Source: Escherichia coli O127:H6 str. E2348/69 (GTDB taxonomy: Bacteria > Pseudomonadota > Gammaproteobacteria > Enterobacterales > Enterobacteriaceae). Taken from it: a stretch of 64,000 nucleotides of DNA. Position numbers and translations under genes: made by a program. The stretch lies in NCBI RefSeq assembly GCF_000026545.1, contig NC_011601.1; one strand, written 5' to 3'. The notes below the pieces were generated by a model. The model was not told the origin of the DNA. It did not search any database and worked only from the letters and a program-made list of their open reading frames with translations. This document shows positions 20,906 through 28,014 of the stretch, in pieces. Each line of letters begins with the position of its first letter. Position 1 is the first letter of the stretch.

Positions 20906-22888
20906 TTACCATTGATAACTCACGAAAATTTTTCCGTTACGACCATCCTGTGGGATGCCTTGCGGCGACCAGTACTCTTTATCGAAGGCGTTGCCCAATA
21001 CCAGAGTAGTGGTCATGCCTTTGAGCGCCTGCTGCCCTTGATAACTGACGTAGAAATCATTCACACCATAGCCAGGTTGTTTGCTGTAGCTGCTGCTGAT
21101 ATGTGTTGAGCGATCGGCAAACGTACCGACCCAACCAACAGAGAAGCCACTGTGAGCGATCGGAATATTCAGGGTACTGGTAACGGTATCCGGGTTAATG
21201 CTGGAGATATATTCCCCGGTATCGGTGTCTTTGCCGCGGGTACGGTTATAGGCCACATCAAGGCTAAACAGATCAGTGGTATATTTCGTCATCACATCCC
21301 AGCCCCAGATTTTGGCGTTCGGGACGTTATACGACATAGTTGTCGCCGCCGCGAAATCGACGGTCGTGGAGATATAATCTTTCGCTTTGGTATCAAAGTA
21401 GCTGGCTTTAAATTCCAGAGCATCATTGGACAACATCAGGTCATCAAAACGCAGCCCAAAACCGTACTCCTGAGTTTCGTTAGTTTCCGGACGTAAGTTC
21501 GGGTTTGGCACCCAATAGTTGGTATAGAAGCGACCAATCGAGAAGTGTTTAGAATCGTTATACATTTCGCCCATCGTCGGGGCGCGGAATGCCTGAGCAT
21601 ATGAGCCAAATAACATCAGCCAGTTGGTCGGGTTGATAGTCATCCCCGCACGAGATGACCATTTGTCGGCATCAACATCTTTGTAGCCGTCGCTGCTACC
21701 GCGATAACTGTCATAGCGGGTTCCGCCAAGCAGGGTAATCGGCAGATCGCGTAAGGTGATCTCATCTTGTAGCCAGCCAGAGCTAAAATCGATTTTTGCT
21801 TGCGGGAAGCCCGTCGTCGCGCCACCCGGATGTTGTTCCTGACGATAATACTCACCGCCATATGTCAGTAAGTGAGAAGCGAAACTGTCGGCAAATAGAG
21901 TGGAACGGTTCTCCAGCCTTGCTCCTTTTGTTATCTGTTCACGATACTCGCCTGAACTCCCCGTGTTTTGCGCATTAATACGGACTTCCGACCAGTAAAT
22001 TTTTGCATCTGCATTTAACCAGTCGTTACCCTGCGGGGCGAGTTTATAAGAAAGCTGCGCATCGCGTTGAATTGTTGAACGATCGACCATCGGGTTGCTG
22101 CTATCAGAAGCTTCAACGGTCTGCGGATTTTTTGGTTCACGCGCGTCGTTGTTGTAGTAACGCACTAAACCGCTCAGAGACTGGGCTGAATCAATTTGCC
22201 AGGTCCCTTTCGCCAGCATGTTATTAATGGACTCGTCATTCGGCGCGGTTTCACCATTGCTCTGGCGTAAATCACCCCGATCGCGACTGGACCAGGCCAC
22301 AATACCATCCAGATTTTCAGTTCGCCCAAACGCGCTCGCGCCTAATCCCAGGCTATGGTCCCCCGTGCCGCCAGTACCAAAGACACTAAAACCACTACTT
22401 TGTCCTTCCTGCAATAAATCTTTTGCATCGACCGTATCGTAGGAGATCACCCCACCCAGCGCGCCACTGCCATACAGTAATGCTGAAGGTCCGCGAACAA
22501 TCTCAACACGCTTGATCAGCGCCGGATCAAGAAAAGTACCATTCAGGTGTCCGGTATCCGTTCCCTGGCGAACACCATCGACAAGAACCAGCACGCCGCG
22601 ATGATCATAGCCACGCATATTTACATCCTGACCGTTGGTTCGTCCGGTACCATCAAGAGTAATTCCAGGAACATGACGCAGCAAATCAGTGGCTGAAGTA
22701 GCCGTTTGATTTTCAGGAGCGGAAGTGTCGATAACGCTGACCATCATAGGCGCTTCGAAGGAACTACGTGCATTCCCCGTTGCCGTAACGGTCATGGTTT
22801 CAGTAGCAAAAGCAAACGTTGGCAAGGTGGCAGAAACAGCCAAAGCCAACAAACTCAAACGCAACGAGGTAAATTGCGGACGTGACAT
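20906..22888 (-). CDS. chuA: TonB-dependent outer-membrane heme/hemoglobin receptor ChuA
   Basis: 660-aa ORF with signal peptide, TonB-box region, the heme-receptor FRAP and NPNL motifs, and a C-terminal aromatic residue. Confidence 0.95.
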   Translation of the reverse strand: MSRPQFTSLRLSLLALAVSATLPTFAFATETMTVTATGNARSSFEAPMMVSVIDTSAPENQTATSATDLLRHVPGITLDGTGRTNGQDVNMRGYDHRGVLVLVDGVRQGTDTGHLNGTFLDPALIKRVEIVRGPSALLYGSGALGGVISYDTVDAKDLLQEGQSSGFSVFGTGGTGDHSLGLGASAFGRTENLDGIVAWSSRDRGDLRQSNGETAPNDESINNMLAKGTWQIDSAQSLSGLVRYYNNDAREPKNPQTVEASDSSNPMVDRSTIQRDAQLSYKLAPQGNDWLNADAKIYWSEVRINAQNTGSSGEYREQITKGARLENRSTLFADSFASHLLTYGGEYYRQEQHPGGATTGFPQAKIDFSSGWLQDEITLRDLPITLLGGTRYDSYRGSSDGYKDVDADKWSSRAGMTINPTNWLMLFGSYAQAFRAPTMGEMYNDSKHFSIGRFYTNYWVPNPNLRPETNETQEYGFGLRFDDLMLSNDALEFKASYFDTKAKDYISTTVDFAAATTMSYNVPNAKIWGWDVMTKYTTDLFSLDVAYNRTRGKDTDTGEYISSINPDTVTSTLNIPIAHSGFSVGWVGTFADRSTHISSSYSKQPGYGVNDFYVSYQGQQALKGMTTTLVLGNAFDKEYWSPQGIPQDGRNGKIFVSYQW

Positions 22889-23178
22889 AGCGATTCTCCA
22901 TGAGGAAAATAAAAAATGCTGGCTGCCTGGGTTAATACCGGGGTGGCTGGCGAAAAATAAATTTATTTACAATTCAAATGATTAGATATCACCACGGGAA
23001 GCTATTAGCGTATATATCCCGTAAAATTGCCGAATATTTCTGATAATTCAGCAAAAGCACGCCCTCTTTGTCAGGCAAAGTAGTACGCCACGTCTGAAGT
23101 GAAGAGTGCTGTGCGTTTTCCCTTACAAAAGATATGATTTTGTTATCCATGATGTCATATTTTGTTAAACTCAAACGT

Positions 23179-23197
23179 GATAATGAGAATTATTATC
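23179..23197. promoter_or_regulatory. Fur box in the chuA–chuT divergent region
   Basis: gataatgagaattattatc matches the Fur consensus GATAATGATAATCATTATC at 17 of 19 positions. Confidence 0.6.
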
Positions 23198-23524
23198 GAT
23201 CAATTTTTTATGATCAAGCTTTTTTTAACCGCCATTAACGCAATAAACAGGGGGTTATGAAATCTATCCAGCATCCAGAAAACCATCCTGTGTTTATGGC
23301 TATCCCCCCACAACCTCATCACAAAACGTTGTCGTTAACAGTGATAATTTTCTCTTCTCTTTGCTCTGCAAGCCGCGATATCTCCGGGTTCTCAGCTTTT
23401 TCCCGCGCTGAAATTTAATCGGTAACAAGAACATTAGCTGACGAAGCATCTTGATAAAAATCAAAAATAAATACGCTTGTAACGCCGTGCGTATTGAATC
23501 GACGGTTGTATTTCATATATAACT

Positions 23525-23547
23525 CAAATGATAATCATAATCATTCT
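23525..23547. promoter_or_regulatory. Fur box just upstream of chuT
   Basis: aaatgataatcataatcattctc, 25 bp upstream of the proposed chuT ATG. Confidence 0.6.
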
Positions 23548-23571
23548 CAATTTGATAAGAGTTCTCACATT

Positions 23572-24486
23572 ATGCCAAGGATCATCACCAGGCCGTTTCT
23601 TTTTTCCCCACTAACGTTATGTATTTCAGCCGTGGCCTCTGCCGCGAAGACCATGGTAAAACGAAAAAAATTGTTTACGGCATTACTGGCTTTTAGCTGG
23701 ACTTTTAGCGTAACGGCTGCCGAACGTATCGTGGTCGCAGGAGGATCGCTGACGGAGCTAATCTACGCGATGGGCGCTGGCAAACGCGTGGTTGGTGTCG
23801 ATGAAACGACATCTTATCCACCAGAAACCGCCAAACTGCCGCATATTGGTTACTGGAAACAACTCAGCAGCGAAGGCATTTTGTCACTTCGCCCGGATAG
23901 CGTAATTACCTGGCAGGATGCAGGACCGCAAATTGTGCTCGACCAACTGCGGGCGCAAAAAGTCAACGTCGTCACTCTGCCGCGTGTACCAGCCACCCTT
24001 GAGCAGATGTACGCCAACATTCGCCAACTGGCAAAAACGTTACAGGTTCCTGAACAAGGCGAGGCGCTGGTGACACAGATCAACCAACGCCTGGAGCGAG
24101 TACAGCAAAACGTGACGGCCAAAAAAGCCCCGGTTAAAGCCATGTTTATTCTCTCCGCAGGCGGAAGTGCGCCACAGGTTGCCGGTAAAGGCAGCGTCGC
24201 GGACGCCATTCTTTCGCTTGCCGGAGCAGAAAACGTCGCTACCCACCAGCAGTACAAAAGCTACAGCGCGGAATCGCTGATTGCGGCTAACCCTGAAGTG
24301 ATTGTCGTCACCTCACAAATGGTCGATGGCGATATTAATCGGCTACGTTCTATTGCCGGAATTACCCACACTGCCGCCTGGAAAAACCAGCGCATTATCA
24401 CCGTTGATCAAAACCTGATTCTGGGAATGGGTCCGCGTATTGCTGATGTCGTTGAGTCTTTACACCAGCAGCTTTGGCCGCAATAA
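23572..24486 (+). CDS. chuT: Periplasmic hemin-binding protein ChuT
   Basis: Class III periplasmic binding-protein fold. Start at 23572 (304 aa) is chosen because the longer ORF-track start (23494) overlaps the Fur box; a third in-frame ATG at 23653 is also possible. Confidence 0.85.
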   Translation: MPRIITRPFLFSPLTLCISAVASAAKTMVKRKKLFTALLAFSWTFSVTAAERIVVAGGSLTELIYAMGAGKRVVGVDETTSYPPETAKLPHIGYWKQLSSEGILSLRPDSVITWQDAGPQIVLDQLRAQKVNVVTLPRVPATLEQMYANIRQLAKTLQVPEQGEALVTQINQRLERVQQNVTAKKAPVKAMFILSAGGSAPQVAGKGSVADAILSLAGAENVATHQQYKSYSAESLIAANPEVIVVTSQMVDGDINRLRSIAGITHTAAWKNQRIITVDQNLILGMGPRIADVVESLHQQLWPQ

Positions 24487-24505
24487 ATGGATTTAAATCA
24501 GACGA

Positions 24506-25843
24506 ATGAACACAAATAACACCCTGGATCTCACGCCACATTTTGCTTTAGACGGTGATCAGCCATTTAAAGACAGGCGCGCCATGATGCCGTTTCGTGG
24601 GGCCATTCCGGTTGCCAAAGAGCAACTGGCACAGACCTGGCAAGAGATGATCAATCAAACGGTATCACCACGTAAGCGACTGGTTTACCTACACATTCCT
24701 TTTTGTGCGACACACTGCACGTTTTGTGGTTTTTATCAGAACCGTTTTAATGAAGATGCGTGTGCTCATTATACCGACGCCCTGATTCGTGAAATAGAAC
24801 TGGAAGCAGACAGCGTATTGCATCAGTCTGCCCCCATCCACGCGGTCTATTTCGGTGGCGGTACGCCTTCCGCGCTTTCAGCACACGATTTGGCCAGAAT
24901 CATCACCACATTACGAGAAAAGCTGCCACTGGCCCCTGATTGTGAAATCACTATTGAAGGCCGGGTACTGAATTTTGACGCTGAGCGAATCGATGCTTGC
25001 CTTGATGCAGGAGCAAACCGCTTCTCAATTGGTATTCAGTCGTTTAACAGCAAAATCCGCAAGAAAATGGCCCGCACCTCGGATGGCCCAACCGCTATTG
25101 CGTTTATGGAAAGCCTGGTCAAACGCGATCGTGCCGCGGTGGTCTGTGACCTGCTGTTTGGTCTGCCGGGTCAGGATGCGCAAACCTGGGGAGAAGATCT
25201 GGCTATTGCCCGCGATATCGGTCTCGACGGCGTCGATCTCTATGCGCTCAATGTCCTGCCCAATACACCGCTGGGCAAAGCCGTGGAAAATGGGCGTACT
25301 ACCGTGCCCTCTCCGGCAGAACGTCGCGATCTTTACCTGCAAGGGTGTGATTTTATGGACGATGCCGGTTGGCGCTGCATCAGTAACAGCCACTGGGGCC
25401 GTACCACACGCGAACGCAATCTCTATAACCTGCTGATTAAACAAGGTGCCGATTGTCTGGCCTTTGGTTCCGGAGCCGGCGGTTCGATTAATGGTTACTC
25501 CTGGATGAACGAACGCAATCTTCAGACCTGGCATGAATCCGTCGCAGCAGGCAAAAAACCGCTGATGATGATCATGCGTAACGCCGAACGTAACGCGCAG
25601 TGGCGTCATACCTTGCAGTCGGGCATTGAAACGGCGCGTGTACCGCTGGACGAACTTACGCCACATGCCGAAAAACTCGCGCCGTTACTGGCCCAGTGGC
25701 ACCAAAAAGGCTTAAGCCGCGATGCGTCAACGTGTCTGCGGTTGACCAATGAAGGTCGTTTCTGGGCAAGCAACATTTTGCAGTCTCTTAATGAACTGAT
25801 TCAGGTACTTAATGCGCCAGCAATTGCGCTTGAAAAACCATAA
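24506..25843 (+). CDS. chuW: Radical-SAM anaerobic heme-degrading methyltransferase ChuW (HemN-like)
   Basis: 445-aa ORF with the radical-SAM motif CATHCTFCGF. Confidence 0.9.
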   Translation: MNTNNTLDLTPHFALDGDQPFKDRRAMMPFRGAIPVAKEQLAQTWQEMINQTVSPRKRLVYLHIPFCATHCTFCGFYQNRFNEDACAHYTDALIREIELEADSVLHQSAPIHAVYFGGGTPSALSAHDLARIITTLREKLPLAPDCEITIEGRVLNFDAERIDACLDAGANRFSIGIQSFNSKIRKKMARTSDGPTAIAFMESLVKRDRAAVVCDLLFGLPGQDAQTWGEDLAIARDIGLDGVDLYALNVLPNTPLGKAVENGRTTVPSPAERRDLYLQGCDFMDDAGWRCISNSHWGRTTRERNLYNLLIKQGADCLAFGSGAGGSINGYSWMNERNLQTWHESVAAGKKPLMMIMRNAERNAQWRHTLQSGIETARVPLDELTPHAEKLAPLLAQWHQKGLSRDASTCLRLTNEGRFWASNILQSLNELIQVLNAPAIALEKP

Positions 25844-25855
25844 CAGGAGTGATTT

Positions 25856-26350
25856 ATGAGCCATGTCTCGTTACAGGAATTTTTGAAAACGGAGCCAGAC
25901 GGTACGCTGGAGGCGATCGCCGAACAATACAACACCACGCTGCTGGAGGTAGTGAAAAATCTGCCCTCTCCGACTGTTGTGCCAGGTGATAAATTCGATA
26001 CTGTCTGGGATACCGTCTGCGAATGGGGCAACGTCACCACGTTAGTACATACTACCGATATAATACTCGAATTTAGCGGCGAACTGCCTTCGGGTTTCCA
26101 TCGCCACGGCTATTTCAACCTACGCGGAAAGCACGGCATGTCCGGGCATATCAAAGCAGAAAACTGCACGCATATTGCCTTGATCGAACGTAAATTTATG
26201 GGCATGGACACCGCCTCTATTCTCTTTTTCAATAAGGAAGGCAGCGCAATGCTGAAAATCTTCCTCGGTAGGGATGATCATCGTCAGCTCCTGAGCGAAC
26301 AAGTCAGCGCCTTCCATGCTCTGGCAGCATCGTTAAAGGAACACGCCTGA
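25856..26350 (+). CDS. chuX: Heme-binding/trafficking protein ChuX
   Basis: 164-aa ORF with an aggag SD, in the expected position within the chu operon. Confidence 0.85.
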   Translation: MSHVSLQEFLKTEPDGTLEAIAEQYNTTLLEVVKNLPSPTVVPGDKFDTVWDTVCEWGNVTTLVHTTDIILEFSGELPSGFHRHGYFNLRGKHGMSGHIKAENCTHIALIERKFMGMDTASILFFNKEGSAMLKIFLGRDDHRQLLSEQVSAFHALAASLKEHA

Positions 26351-26973
26351 TGACACCGTGGCTACTCTTTGGCGCAGGCGGAAAAGGTGTGGGTGCCAGA
26401 ACGCTTGAACTGGCGCTGGCGGAACAACGTCCGGTCGTTGCTGTCATTCGTCATGCCAATGCCGCCATGAAACTGGCGCAACAAGGCGTACAGGTTTTTA
26501 CAGGCGACGCCTGTGATGCCAGCGTAGTCGCGGCTGCTTGCCGCGCAGCTGGCCCGGATGCGCTTATCATCTCAACAATGGGCGGAGCTCAGGATTATCT
26601 GGCGCACAGAACAGTGATTGATGAGGCCGAGAAGGCTGGCATCAGTCGCATGATTCTGGTGACCTCTTTGGGATGCAGCGATAGCTGGCCGTTTTTATCA
26701 GAGCGGGCAAAGGCTGCGTTTGGTCAGGCGGTACGGGAAAAAACGCTGGCGGAAACCTGGTTGCAAACCAGCCAGCTTGATTATGCCATTCTCCGCCCCG
26801 GCGGTCTGCTTGATGGTGCGGCAACGGGCAAAGCACAACGGATACAAAATCAGGAGTGTCATGGTTTTGTTAACCGTGCTGATGTCGCCGCACATATCCA
26901 TGAACTGGCAAATGCGCCAGCACTTAACCAGCAGGTCTACAGTCTGATTGAACCGGACCTGAAACCGGCGTGA
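26350..26973 (+). CDS. chuY: NAD(P)-dependent anaerobilin reductase ChuY
   Basis: 207-aa ORF with an N-terminal Rossmann-type motif; start overlaps the chuX stop. Confidence 0.85.
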   Translation: MTPWLLFGAGGKGVGARTLELALAEQRPVVAVIRHANAAMKLAQQGVQVFTGDACDASVVAAACRAAGPDALIISTMGGAQDYLAHRTVIDEAEKAGISRMILVTSLGCSDSWPFLSERAKAAFGQAVREKTLAETWLQTSQLDYAILRPGGLLDGAATGKAQRIQNQECHGFVNRADVAAHIHELANAPALNQQVYSLIEPDLKPA

Positions 26974-27021
26974 TCCCCCGGCGCGGCATATCCGCGCCGT
27001 AATGTCGTAACGGAGTTTTGC

Positions 27022-28014
27022 GTGCTCAAGGATTCACTCTCTTCCGCCAGGATCTTTATGGGGCTATCACTATTATTGCTCGCTCTGGTGCTGTTCAGTG
27101 CCAGTCAGGGAGCGTTAAAGATCAGTTTTGATGCCCTTTTTGATGAGGAATACCGCGATATCTGGCTCAATATTCGTCTACCACGGGTTTTGCTGGCGGT
27201 GCTGGTAGGTGCAGCGTTGGCAACCGCAGGGGTAATTATGCAGGGGCTTTTTCGCAACCCAATGGCTGACCCTGGATTACTTGGCGTCAGTAGCGGTTCT
27301 GCATTAATGGTTGGCGTTGCTATTGTGCTGCCCTTCTCCTTCCCAGTGGTGCTGGTGCTCTATGAGCAAATGGTGTTTGCCATTGCCGGAAGTTTAGTGG
27401 TCTGCACCATCATTTTTCTCATCACGCAGCGCCATCGCGATGGCAGCATGATGCAATTATTACTCGCCGGTATCGCCATCAATGCCCTGTGCGGCGCAGC
27501 GATCGGCATCCTGAGCTATATCGGCGATGAGCAGCAGCTACGACAACTCACATTGTGGATGATGGGCAATCTTGGACAGGCGCAATGGCCGACGTTATTG
27601 GTTGCCAGTTCATTCATCCTACCGGCCATTATCGCAACAACTTGTCTCGCCGGAACGCTGAATTTACTGCAGCTCGGTGATGAAGAAGCCCACTACCTCG
27701 GCGTGAACGTGAAGCGTAAACGCCAGCAATTACTGTTAGTGAGCTCACTGCTCGTTGGTGCTGCCGTATCGGTAAGCGGCATTATCGGCTTTATTGGCCT
27801 GGTGATCCCGCATCTGATTCGCATGACTACCGGGGCAAATCACCGCTGGCTAATCCCTTGTTCCGCCCTCGCCGGAGCCTGTTTATTGCTGATGGCAGAC
27901 ACGCTTGCCCGCACGCTGGTACAGCCAGCAGAAATGCCCGTGGGATTATTAACCAGCCTGCTTGGTGGCCCTTATTTTATGTGGTTGATTCTGCGCAACC
28001 GGAGGATCACATGA
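27022..28014 (+). CDS. chuU: Hemin ABC transporter permease ChuU (FecCD family)
   Basis: 330-aa polytopic ORF of the FecCD/BtuC permease family. Confidence 0.9.

Follow-up and report, generated by a model that had tools for sequence, protein, structure and literature searches.

The closest described systems are the haem-uptake loci of Escherichia coli and Shigella. Fur binding/iron-dependent repression has been published for shuA/chuA and for shuT (PMC3660397, PMC5458455). The receptor leader contains a FourU thermoregulator (RF02597; Kouse et al. 2013, PMC3660397), for which mutagenesis has been published, and a temperature response, with more translation at 37 C than at 25 C and an effect of stem mutations, was reported for shuA and for the chuA leader of UPEC. 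In EHEC Sakai, the chuA leader is also regulated by the sRNA CyaR and by ChiX, with Rho-dependent termination (Sy and Tree 2022, PMC9002310). For shuT, 5'-RACE and mutagenesis placed the Fur site at the unusual position +1..+19 (Wei et al. 2017, PMC5458455). The Shigella locus is treated in the literature simply as lacking hemP. More distant systems are the Yersinia-type operon hemPRSTUV with HemP/HmuP (PF10636) and the HmuP-responsive element or HPRE (Amarelle et al. 2019, as quoted in PMC9131926 and PMC9241770), a direct repeat with a GCCAGCC core in the leader of a haem TonB receptor gene, some tens of nucleotides before the ATG.

The window, that is the whole stretch of 64,000 nucleotides analysed here, is 100% identical to E. 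coli E2348/69, and its haem locus is annotated chuS-chuA / chuT-hutW. We consider it very likely that the region between chuA and chuT represents, in EPEC E2348/69, the divergent control region through which Fur represses the haem-uptake locus of E. coli and Shigella, with the known architecture of chuAS and chuT. The Fur boxes, the leader of 291-293 nt, the FourU thermometer, the control by CyaR and Rho, and the Fur site and thermometer of chuT have all been published already. The data on transcription start, CyaR and Rho come from EHEC Sakai and those on the thermometers from Shigella and UPEC. On the chuAS side these experiments concern alleles that are identical or nearly so, and the data were mapped to E2348/69 by homology.

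Divergent promoters and Fur boxes

The chuA–chuT spacer extends over 683 bp (22889..23571) as annotated by RefSeq for E2348/69, whose sequence is identical, since the start codon of chuA occupies 22888..22886 on the minus strand and that of chuT begins at 23572. Its promoter elements are the following.

22886..22888, minus strand: chuA start codon ATG (RefSeq annotation; 660-aa ORF 20906..22888)
23179..23197, unstranded: Fur box 1 (chuA), GATAATGAGAATTATTATC, 17/19 match to the consensus GATAATGATAATCATTATC, covering the -10 hexamer and +1
23189..23217, minus strand: chuA sigma-70 promoter from a consensus scan, -35 TTGATC (23217..23212), 17-nt spacer, -10 AATAAT (23194..23189)
23218..23489, unstranded: central spacer between the divergent promoters, found by blastn in Escherichia loci only
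23494..23523, plus strand: probable chuT promoter, inferred by eye, -35 TTGAAT (23494..23499), 18-nt spacer, -10 TATAAC (23518..23523)
23530..23548, unstranded: Fur box 2 (chuT), GATAATCATAATCATTCTC, 17/19, at +1..+19 of the chuT transcript
23530..23571, plus strand: chuT 5' UTR of 42 nt, carrying a shuT-type RNA thermometer that pairs U15-C19 with the AAGAG ribosome-binding site (PMC5458455)

A scan of both strands of the 64-kb window detected only these two sites with at most three mismatches to the 19-bp Fur consensus; by our own arithmetic, about 7e-4 sites with at most two mismatches are expected by chance. The proximal end of box 1 is located 291 nt from the chuA ATG, and this box contains both the -10 hexamer AATAAT and the homologous +1. 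Box 2 begins at the equivalent of the shuT +1 and ends 23 nt ahead of the chuT ATG; an overlapping site at 23524..23542 matches 15/19 positions. An earlier note on this DNA had described a 683-bp spacer, a strong Fur box at 23179..23197 about 290 bp upstream of the chuA ATG and a second Fur-like box at 23525..23547 beside chuT. The annotated start codons bear out the spacer, the consensus-mismatch scan recovered both boxes at 17/19, and only the limits of the second are adjusted, its best 19-mer being 23530..23548. Since a 17/19 Fur box covers the -10 and +1 of the sigma-70 promoter, Fe-Fur prevents chuA initiation.

The chuA promoter and its Fur box are identical to those of Sakai at 37/37 positions, and the promoter is correctly placed for the mapped +1. 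The chuT promoter is identical at 40/40 positions and fits the shuT start mapped by 5'-RACE 42 nt before the ATG (PMC5458455); hexamers proposed for chuT by an automatic promoter scan were set aside because they fall downstream of this published start. By analogy with the Shigella orthologue, the chuT side would consist of a promoter, a Fur box at +1..+19 and a 42-nt leader with its own small thermometer. The distance from the start of the Fur box to the ATG is the same 42 nt as in shuT, whereas the Fur box, at 17/19 here, has three mismatches in Shigella. This leader is 95% identical to that of Sakai (two substitutions), and its fold in ViennaRNA is weak (-4.5 kcal/mol at 25 C and -1.6 kcal/mol at 37 C).

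The central spacer 23218..23489 is 90.4% identical to Sakai, near the value of the four-fold sites of the flanking genes, and has no match in Rfam. It contains a 53-aa ORF (23257..23418, plus strand) with GGGGG just upstream, which was judged non-coding because a frameshift reduces it to 26 codons in Sakai and its substitutions are mostly non-synonymous. Three aspects of the locus had been missed by the earlier note: the thermometer and Fur position of chuT, the control by CyaR and Rho, and the probable hemP origin of the chuA leader.

The chuA leader and its thermometer

The structures of the chuA transcript ahead of the coding sequence are listed below.

22889..23180, minus strand: chuA 5' untranslated leader of about 292 nt, with +1 at ~23180 (within 2 nt) by homology with Sakai
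22893..22910, minus strand: FourU RNA thermometer hairpin, 5' arm AUUUUCC (22910..22904), loop UCAU (22903..22900), 3' arm GGAGAAU containing the SD (22899..22893)
22911..22917, minus strand: distal U-tract AUUUUUU, a second possible anti-SD strand, forming the consensus hairpin family-wide

In EHEC Sakai, according to dRNA-seq, 291 nt separate the chuA +1 from the ATG (PMC9002310). For S. dysenteriae, RT-PCR gave a leader of 278-342 nt; the reporter construct made for UPEC contained 293 nt (PMC3660397). Nagy 2001, as cited in PMC9002310, had predicted that chuA starts some 300 nt ahead of its ATG. Because the promoter is identical to that of Sakai at 37/37 positions and the leader has a single 1-nt indel, the homologous +1 falls at ~23180 and the UTR measures ~292 nt. 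The long leader claimed in the earlier note thus agrees with the mapped Sakai start, which lies some 291 nt from the ATG and not within 50 nt of it, as well as with the RT-PCR. The RfaH ops element GGCGGTAGNNTG was rejected as a leader component, with no match at up to two mismatches in 22889..23180. Nagy 2001 is also said to report an effect of RfaH on chuA.

Relative to the EHEC leader of Sy and Tree (PMC9002310), the promoter, the last 66 nt and the predicted CyaR site are the same and the UTR is of 292 instead of 291 nt. No variation occurs in the 66 nt that precede the ATG, with 100% identity between E2348/69 and Sakai, while +1..+229 of E2348/69, a B2/UPEC-type allele, is only 77% identical. 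The UPEC allele of chuA was 55% more fluorescent and without repression by ChiX (PMC9002310). Leader truncations showed that +1..+217 represses expression and is required for sensitivity to bicyclomycin (PMC9002310), so at least part of the leader has a function today.

An Rfam search of 18000..28000 (E<=10) gave only chance-level matches besides RF02597 (shuA_thermo), which was detected at 22886..22917 on the minus strand with 60.1 bits (gathering score 58, E = 1.1e-7). All 32 model positions (1-32) are covered and every base is identical to the consensus. The chuA leader is therefore a member of the FourU family from which it shows no difference. The SD string cauuuuuuauuuuccucauggagaaucgcuAUG given by the earlier note is present exactly at 22918..22886 (minus strand), and the U-rich, FourU-type character attributed to it is supported by this match and by a run of four U that pairs with the SD. 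Folding at 25 and 37 C, the check proposed for this claim, gave a stable hairpin of AUUUUCC with GGAGAAU that occludes the SD (-8.4 kcal/mol at 25 C, -6.1 kcal/mol at 37 C; z = -2.83 relative to shuffles). Even at 42 C the minimum-energy structure predicted in silico is this hairpin, and modelled folding alone is insufficient to show thermosensing. In the published scheme, the hairpin pairs UUUUCC with the SD, gates the translation of chuA and opens at 37 C.

The distal U-tract may provide a second partner for the SD. In the family-wide alignment, 96.7% of the cells of the pairing between this tract and the SD form pairs, with one compensatory change from C-G to U-A. The comparison across genera indicates that outside Escherichia the distal (upstream) tract is the better-conserved partner, and in the U274A mutant folded in silico the SD pairing moves to 22911..22917.

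The hemP interval in related bacteria and in Escherichia

In other Enterobacterales, all the 73 loci encoding a ChuA homologue contain an intact hemP (PF10636) in the interval from the Fur box to the receptor gene, and the ORF ends with GKLILTK. Four representative hemP ORFs score 57-64 bits on PF10636, for a cut-off of 25. A protein homologue search with HemP returned close enteric relatives only, and a search of a representative library reached distant HemP. The receptors of the hemP-bearing Enterobacterales share 57-88% identity with ChuA. The genes of 71 loci run hemP-R-S-T-U along a single strand, whereas chuW/chuT are inverted in Escherichia. The Escherichia locus shares with the Yersinia-type hemPRSTUV a Fur-regulated promoter ~290 nt upstream of the receptor gene and an orthologous pre-receptor spacer; it differs by the absence of a recognisable hemP, by the inversion of the transporter genes into a separate divergent operon and by the addition of chuWXY. 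The distance from the Fur box to the ATG is 273-310 nt in the hemP loci devoid of insertions, compared with 291 nt here, and the spacer between hemP and the receptor gene measures 66-103 nt. Similarity of the leader to other genera is limited, by blastn, to its last 58-84 nt.

The position of hemP is occupied in E2348/69 by one candidate feature.

22989..23150, minus strand: candidate hemP relic, a 53-codon ORF MDNKIISFVRENAQ…FPW* at leader +31..+192

The hemP start context (C/T)ATGGATAACA is kept in the Escherichia leader, where ATGGATAAC is retained. Six Escherichia alleles display six different truncations of the ORF in the hemP interval, and their frameshifts differ too. Between E2348/69 and Sakai, this middle part is 77% identical, compared with 90% for the four-fold sites of chuA/chuT and 100% for both flanks. 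These observations suggest that the long chuA/shuA leader is probably the decayed remains of an ancestral hemP-hemR arrangement, a reading that would be a modest addition and is probably unpublished.

Direct similarity to hemP was searched at the protein and DNA levels. The HMM of the HemP protein, run on six-frame and on stop-to-stop translations, did not detect the leader (about 0 bits), nor did a hemP DNA profile with nhmmer; the E-values of both HMMs were 2.7 or worse in a search space of 84 segments. Pairwise local alignments of the mid-leader with hemP reach z ~2-3 relative to shuffles, and global ones do not outscore shuffled sequences. The best patch, 29 nt with 69% identity on the syntenic diagonal, was equalled or exceeded by 67 of 1000 shuffles. 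As neither HMMs nor alignments find significant similarity, it is the position, the flanks and the length, and not the sequence, that support homology of the middle 160 nt. The same lack of significant similarity would be expected if the leader had arisen independently as a regulatory RNA platform (sRNA/Hfq sites, a rut site, inhibitory structure) with no descent from hemP, its equal length being coincidental or hemP having been replaced by unrelated DNA; the repression by +1..+217 and its requirement for bicyclomycin sensitivity also speak for such a platform. We nevertheless find this unlikely, because hemP lies in exactly this interval in all the 73 other loci, the flanks are orthologous with the ATGGATAAC start context kept, and the mid-leader, unlike a constrained RNA, diverges faster than four-fold sites and contains lineage-specific indels.

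The ORF 23150..22989 could also be read as a functional small protein or as a regulatory upstream ORF modulating the access of Rho. Its frame is open in the B2 allele of E2348/69, and the missing SD does not exclude translation since the intact hemP genes of other genera are likewise without an obvious SD. This function is highly improbable: the frame is stopped or shifted at different points in Sakai, E. albertii and three more Escherichia alleles, the substitutions between alleles are mostly non-synonymous, and the KLILTK C-terminus and the family-defining, heme-binding H/Y residues are absent. In a Pfam search at E<=10, the E2348/69 and Sakai versions alike had no match, PF10636 included. 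Decay of hemP is the reading that we retain: the ancestral gene would have decayed in Escherichia and the transporter genes moved onto the opposite strand. The hemP-hemR spacer, with an HPRE-like repeat, two U-rich anti-SD tracts and the SD, would have been kept unchanged and would now form the platform on which CyaR and the thermometer operate.

The HPRE-like repeat, the CyaR site and premature 3' ends

Upstream of the thermometer, the conserved end of the leader contains two overlapping features.

22918..22951, minus strand: HPRE-like element GCCAGCCACCCCGG-UAUUAA-CCCAGGCAGCCAGC, of the pattern GCCAGCC-N20-AGCCAGC
22912..22931, minus strand: predicted CyaR pairing site, composed of the 3' half of the HPRE-like element and the U-tract

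The HPRE-like pattern is unique in the 64-kb window, where 0.03 occurrences are expected by chance. Across 60 leaders of many different genera, the element shows no or almost no variation, and it is 100% identical between E2348/69 and Sakai. In the hemP-bearing enterics the GCCAGCC repeat is found downstream of hemP in all cases, and a paired motif of the GCCAGCC type also follows hemP in distant, non-enteric metagenomic loci. It resembles the C. violaceum HPRE in the form quoted in PMC9131926. Compared with the published HPRE, as it is given in the quoting papers, the repeats here are 19-20 nt apart and include a CCCAGG sub-repeat. The GCCAGCC…AGCCAGC repeat thus resembles an HmuP-responsive element, its dependence on HmuP being putative. 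Among 5,426 complete E. coli genomes, no co-occurrence of hemP with the HPRE-like element was detected by blastn (E<=10, 'distant' mode, Kluyvera hemP as query), a search sensitive to DNA similarity only.

The CyaR site was obtained from a windowed seed scan, as RNAduplex applied to the whole length gave meaningless long-range pairings. The best duplex (-18.1 kcal/mol) covers leader +250..+269 (22931..22912) and agrees with PMC9002310, where compensatory mutagenesis supported direct pairing of CyaR ~15 nt upstream of the SD and a 1.3-fold activation. In E2348/69 CyaR would likewise pair about 15 nt upstream and activate chuA. The same study reported a Term-seq 3' end at Sakai +271, which corresponds to ~22909 here, just past the distal U-tract; some chuA transcripts would terminate early around this position in a bicyclomycin-sensitive manner.

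From this arrangement we judge it somewhat probable that the leader consists of a decayed hemP and an intact hemP-hemR spacer, and that its GCCAGCC…AGCCAGC repeat is a gammaproteobacterial HmuP-responsive element which persisted after the loss of its regulator and came to be used by CyaR and the FourU thermometer. The invariant block may instead be kept in E. coli only as a CyaR/Hfq site, its likeness to the HPRE being irrelevant. The position of the best CyaR duplex, the compensatory mutagenesis and the lack of hemP-like DNA in the 5,426 E. coli genomes are all compatible with this explanation, which we hold to be rather doubtful. The first repeat (22938..22951) is outside the CyaR duplex, yet equally invariant; the paired motif follows hemP in the metagenomic loci mentioned above and in C. 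violaceum; and a 1.3-fold activation is weak for a conservation of 66/66 positions.

Another explanation concerns the +271 ends, which could reflect weak intrinsic termination or pausing and not purely Rho. The HPRE would form an imperfect hairpin followed by AUUUUUUAUUUU, and HemP would act elsewhere as an RNA-binding antiterminator. The hairpin (-8.5 kcal/mol) ends at 22918 and the +271 end falls 8-9 nt later, inside the U-run. Bicyclomycin raises read-through just 1.3-1.5-fold (PMC9002310), and ChuP raises the mRNA of chuR, a gene lacking its own promoter, even though this protein does not bind the DNA (PMC9131926). We regard this model as quite improbable: the hairpin is imperfect, with tandem C·A mismatches and a z-score of merely -1.4; the terminator scan reported nothing at 22911..22951, and the published ARNold run was also negative (PMC9002310); and the U-run is only four long in other genera. 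Covariation is uninformative for this hairpin because seven of its eight pairs never vary.

The reading of the leader as the remains of a hemP region offers an explanation for a chuA leader whose length is ten times the usual one, and links two literatures without mutual citation, that of chuA riboregulation in E. coli and Shigella and that of HemP/HmuP-HPRE control in alpha- and betaproteobacteria. According to this link, the part to dissect is the invariant block of 66 nt and not the whole 292 nt. If the link is true, E. coli would provide a tractable system for the action of HemP on RNA, with a leader that has the element without the protein. If the HPRE reading is also true, it would contrast with the absence of HPREs from gammaproteobacteria stated in PMC9241770. 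The element would then be the RNA target of HemP in Citrobacter, Enterobacter and Yersinia, and E. coli chuA would be regulated again by HemP provided in trans.

The chuA–chuT control region

The divergent control region between the RefSeq genes chuA and chuT measures 683 bp (22889..23571), exactly as the earlier note had given it. The 1.3-kb stretch around this spacer displays 100% identity with E. coli O127:H6 E2348/69 and was found in 2,236 of 5,426 complete E. coli genomes, chromosomal in every case, with two allele groups (at least 99% identity in 1,218 genomes, 90-95% in 1,007). It is an ordinary feature for a pathogenic E. coli. Downstream of chuT, RefSeq annotates hutW, hutX, chuY, chuU and chuV in this order. 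The chu locus is bounded by slp-dctR on one side and by yhiD-hdeB (acid-fitness island) on the other; a frameshifted, incomplete hypothetical gene (RefSeq) lies just outside the chu island, between arsC and slp (17956..18333; L001:1357-1734 in the fetched locus).

Features of the control region and published elements placed on the window
19829..20857, minus strand: chuS (RefSeq annotation, ORF call)
20906..22888, minus strand: chuA (RefSeq annotation, ORF call)
~22909: Term-seq / Rho site (Sakai +271)
~23004..22964: strongly inhibitory leader segment (+177..+217)
23179..23197: Fur box 1, GATAATGAGAATTATTATC, 17/19 match to the 19-bp consensus
23194..23189, minus strand: chuA -10, AATAAT, of a sigma-70-like promoter
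23217..23212, minus strand: chuA -35, TTGATC, 17-nt spacer
23530..23548: Fur box 2, GATAATCATAATCATTCTC, 17/19, overlapped by a 15/19 site at 23524..23542
23572..24486, plus strand: chuT (RefSeq annotation, ORF call)

The 19-bp Fur consensus was scanned against both strands of the whole 64-kb window. Only two sites have at most three mismatches, each with 17/19 matches and each within the spacer, far beyond chance; the two Fur boxes of the earlier note are thereby confirmed. The chuA -10 sits within Fur box 1. Two copies of the hexamer TTGATC, spaced by 14 nt (23217..23212 and 23203..23198, minus strand), lie directly upstream of this box and abut it; the predicted -35 is the first of them.

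The chuA transcription start of EHEC Sakai, obtained from dRNA-seq by Sy and Tree, gives a 291-nt UTR (PMC9002310). When the Sakai spacer is aligned to the window, the promoter is identical and the leader differs by a single 1-nt indel, which places the homologous +1 at about 23180 and gives a UTR of about 292 nt. The long 5' UTR that had been proposed is thus borne out, in agreement with RT-PCR in S. dysenteriae (278-342 nt) and with a UPEC reporter carrying 293 nt (PMC3660397). No RfaH ops element was detected in the leader (22889..23180, at most two mismatches).

Concerning the chuT side, transcription of Shigella shuT starts 42 nt from the ATG according to 5'-RACE, with a functional Fur site at +1..+19 and a 42-nt UTR that is itself a thermometer (PMC5458455). 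The chuT +1 would therefore be at 23530, exactly where Fur box 2 begins. The earlier note had recognized this box near chuT and overlooked both its unusual +1..+19 position and the second thermometer. Read by eye, TTGAAT-18-TATAAC at 23494..23523 is a plausible chuT promoter. ViennaRNA predicts only weak structure in the chuT UTR. The annotated ChuT N-terminus (23572..23660, plus strand) contains two signal-peptide-like segments in tandem, MPRIITRPFLFSPLTLCISAVASA and MVKRKKLFTALLAFSWTFSVTA, the latter beginning with an in-frame ATG (position 23655) and running into AERIVV. The second more closely resembles a typical signal peptide, so that the real start may be ambiguous; published shuT work used the upstream one.

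Pairing of the chuA SD

The U-rich SD string quoted in the earlier note has an exact copy in the window, and its FourU-type thermometer corresponds to the Rfam family shuA_thermo (RF02597), matched at 22886..22917 (minus strand) with 60.1 bits (gathering score 58) and all bases equal to the consensus. Folding at the two temperatures that had been suggested gave a stable hairpin burying the SD, AUUUUCC-UCAU-GGAGAAU (-8.4 kcal/mol at 25 °C, -6.1 at 37 °C), equalled by 5 of 200 shuffles. Since this hairpin remains the minimum-energy structure at 42 °C in silico, melting is not demonstrable by folding alone, and chuA thermosensing rests on published reporter and mutagenesis data. The strongest CyaR seed duplex (-18.1 kcal/mol) is predicted at +250..+269 (22931..22912), where the published site also lies, some 15 nt 5' of the SD.

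Across genera, the proximal tract (the published FourU arm) pairs with the SD in 88.8% of cells. For a distal U-rich tract, which directly follows the second GCCAGC, the figure with GGAGAG(U) as partner is 96.7%, and sliding the partner strand lowers it to 45-73%; the distal pairing includes one C-G to U-A compensatory pair, Escherichia included. In silico, the wild-type E. coli SD is held by the proximal hairpin (P at least 0.98). A mutation equivalent to the published U273A moves it to the distal U6 tract (P 0.65-0.85), and blocking the CyaR site in addition raises P(SD unpaired) from 0.04-0.09 to about 0.28. We propose, with low confidence, that the leader may possess two alternative anti-SD tracts. 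This model would be compatible with CyaR activation, reported as independent of FourU and slightly greater in U273A (1.6-fold vs 1.3-fold; PMC9002310), and it leaves the CyaR effect in the wild type unexplained.

In the full-length fold, leader +87..+97 (GACGUGGCGUA, 23084..23094, minus strand) forms an 11-bp pairing with the region of the start codon (UAUGUCACGUC, 22880..22890, minus strand). Sakai has three substitutions in this stretch, two preserving the pairing (C to U, G to A) and one disrupting it, and published truncations removing +87..+97 gave no extra derepression; this pairing is probably not important.

hemP in the interval between Fur box and receptor

Eighty loci encoding ChuA relatives (one per species, 57-98% identity) were compared. 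Almost all of them have their top Fur box 273-310 nt ahead of the receptor's ATG (291 in the window), the greater distances of a few loci being due to insertions. In 73 of 73 non-Escherichia loci, an ORF of 52-78 codons ending in GKLILTK occupies the interval between Fur box and receptor; four representatives score 57-64 bits on the Pfam family of the haem-uptake regulator HemP (PF10636, cut-off 25), and public sources name these proteins HemP. Their gene order is hemP-hemR-hemS-hemT-hemU on a single strand, which is the Yersinia hemPRSTUV layout, whereas in Escherichia chuW and chuT are inverted and upstream of chuA. No counterpart of the central spacer and chuT promoter region was found beyond Escherichia by blastn. 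ERIC/IRU-type elements (…AGCTTACATAAGTAAGTGATTCGGGTGA…; L003:2760-2873 and L038:2684-2900 in the fetched loci) interrupt the leader of Escherichia sp. MOD1-EC7003 and, in several Buttiauxella species, separate hemP from the conserved block before the receptor, stretching the Fur-box-to-ATG interval to 400-490 nt.

Each Escherichia allele has a different ORF in this interval, and none matches PF10636 even at E<=10.

ORFs in the corresponding interval of Escherichia
E2348/69: 23150..22989, MDNKIISFVRENAQ…FPW*, 53 codons
Sakai: 45 codons, following a 1-nt deletion
E. coli E69: 40 codons
E. albertii: 34 codons
Two further Escherichia alleles: start lost

Identity between E2348/69 and Sakai
chuA promoter and Fur box: 37/37
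Leader +1..+229 (22952..23180): 176/228 (77%)
Final 66 nt, ATG included: 66/66
Four-fold degenerate sites: chuA 90%, chuT 90%, chuS 95%
Non-transcribed central spacer: 90%

Leader +1..+229 has diverged about twice as much as the four-fold sites of chuA and chuT. Mid-leader sequence therefore changes at least as freely as silent sites, and both ends of the leader are frozen. The cause could be relaxed constraint together with mild silent-site constraint, old recombination or diversifying selection.

The interval may descend from hemP, or hemP may have been replaced by unrelated DNA. Neither a HemP protein HMM, nor a hemP DNA HMM (nhmmer), nor global alignment detected hemP in the mid-leader, and blastn found no hemP-like DNA among the 5,426 complete E. 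coli genomes. The E. coli leader keeps the hemP start context (C/T)ATGGATAACA, correctly spaced from the Fur box. A 29-nt patch, 69% identical, lies on the Kluyvera hemP diagonal (LPDKEGVLL vs LLGEEGWVL), and was equalled or exceeded in 67 of 1000 shuffles. Synteny, flanks, length and parsimony carry the case for descent from hemP, which we consider likely and do not rate higher because the mid-leader is statistically unrecognisable as hemP.

The invariant block and its likeness to the HPRE

From about 17 nt before the invariant block that ends the leader, the sequence is alignable to the ATG in all genera (blastn E 1e-14 to 1e-7, 65 loci). The block core is GCCAGCCACCC(A/C)GG - 6 to 14 nt - CC(C/A/G)AGGCAGCCAGC, with most positions unchanged in 60 sequences, including Budviciaceae at 57-59% receptor identity. 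The window contains a single GCCAGCC-N(4-30)-AGCCAGC motif (22918..22951, minus strand; 0.03 expected). The HmuP-responsive element (HPRE) of C. violaceum, in the form that de Lima et al. quote (PMC9131926), is CCCGCAAGCCAGCCGACAGCCAGCCAGCG, 26 nt before chuR; in this quoted form, its repeated core is the same as in the chuA block. A profile search that reached distant HemP proteins recovered 5,765 representatives (E<=0.001). GCCAGCC-type repeats stand just 3' of hemP in three of four genomic contexts examined (e.g. AGCCAGCCAACCCTTCCGGGCAAGCCAGCCAGC in the distant locus L086); in the fourth, hemP is placed after the receptor and no such repeat was found. In two loci of one distant metagenomic lineage (L086:1501-2703, L087:583-1785), the Fur box, hemP and HPRE-like repeat are followed by DUF6662 and FMN_bind genes in place of a TonB-dependent receptor, which suggests that the hemP/HPRE module can control cargo other than the receptor.

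RNAalifold folds the block into a hairpin of two-base-pair G-C steps with tandem C·A mismatches between them. Pairing holds in all 480 cells, yet seven of eight pairs never vary, and the eighth shows one G-C to A-U double change limited to four Budviciaceae; the z-score in E. coli is -1.4. Any GCCAGC direct repeat pairs this way, so the predicted hairpin is possible only.

A paper citing the primary HPRE study (PMC9241770) states that HPREs are "absent in gammaproteobacteria", and the S. dysenteriae locus is described as having no hemP homologue (PMC6158557). Neither chuA/shuA leader paper mentions hemP or hmuP, and full-text literature searches, whose reach did not include the primary HPRE paper, found no link between this leader and hemP or the HPRE. 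The earlier note was right in its observation and in its interpretation, each of which the literature and Rfam already contain. What is added is, on one hand, an exact coordinate map of the published chuA–chuT elements onto the window and, on the other hand, the comparative argument on hemP, which is probably new: the long chuA leader would probably be a hemP relic that retains an HPRE-like element overlapping the CyaR site, a reading that sequence can prove only in part.
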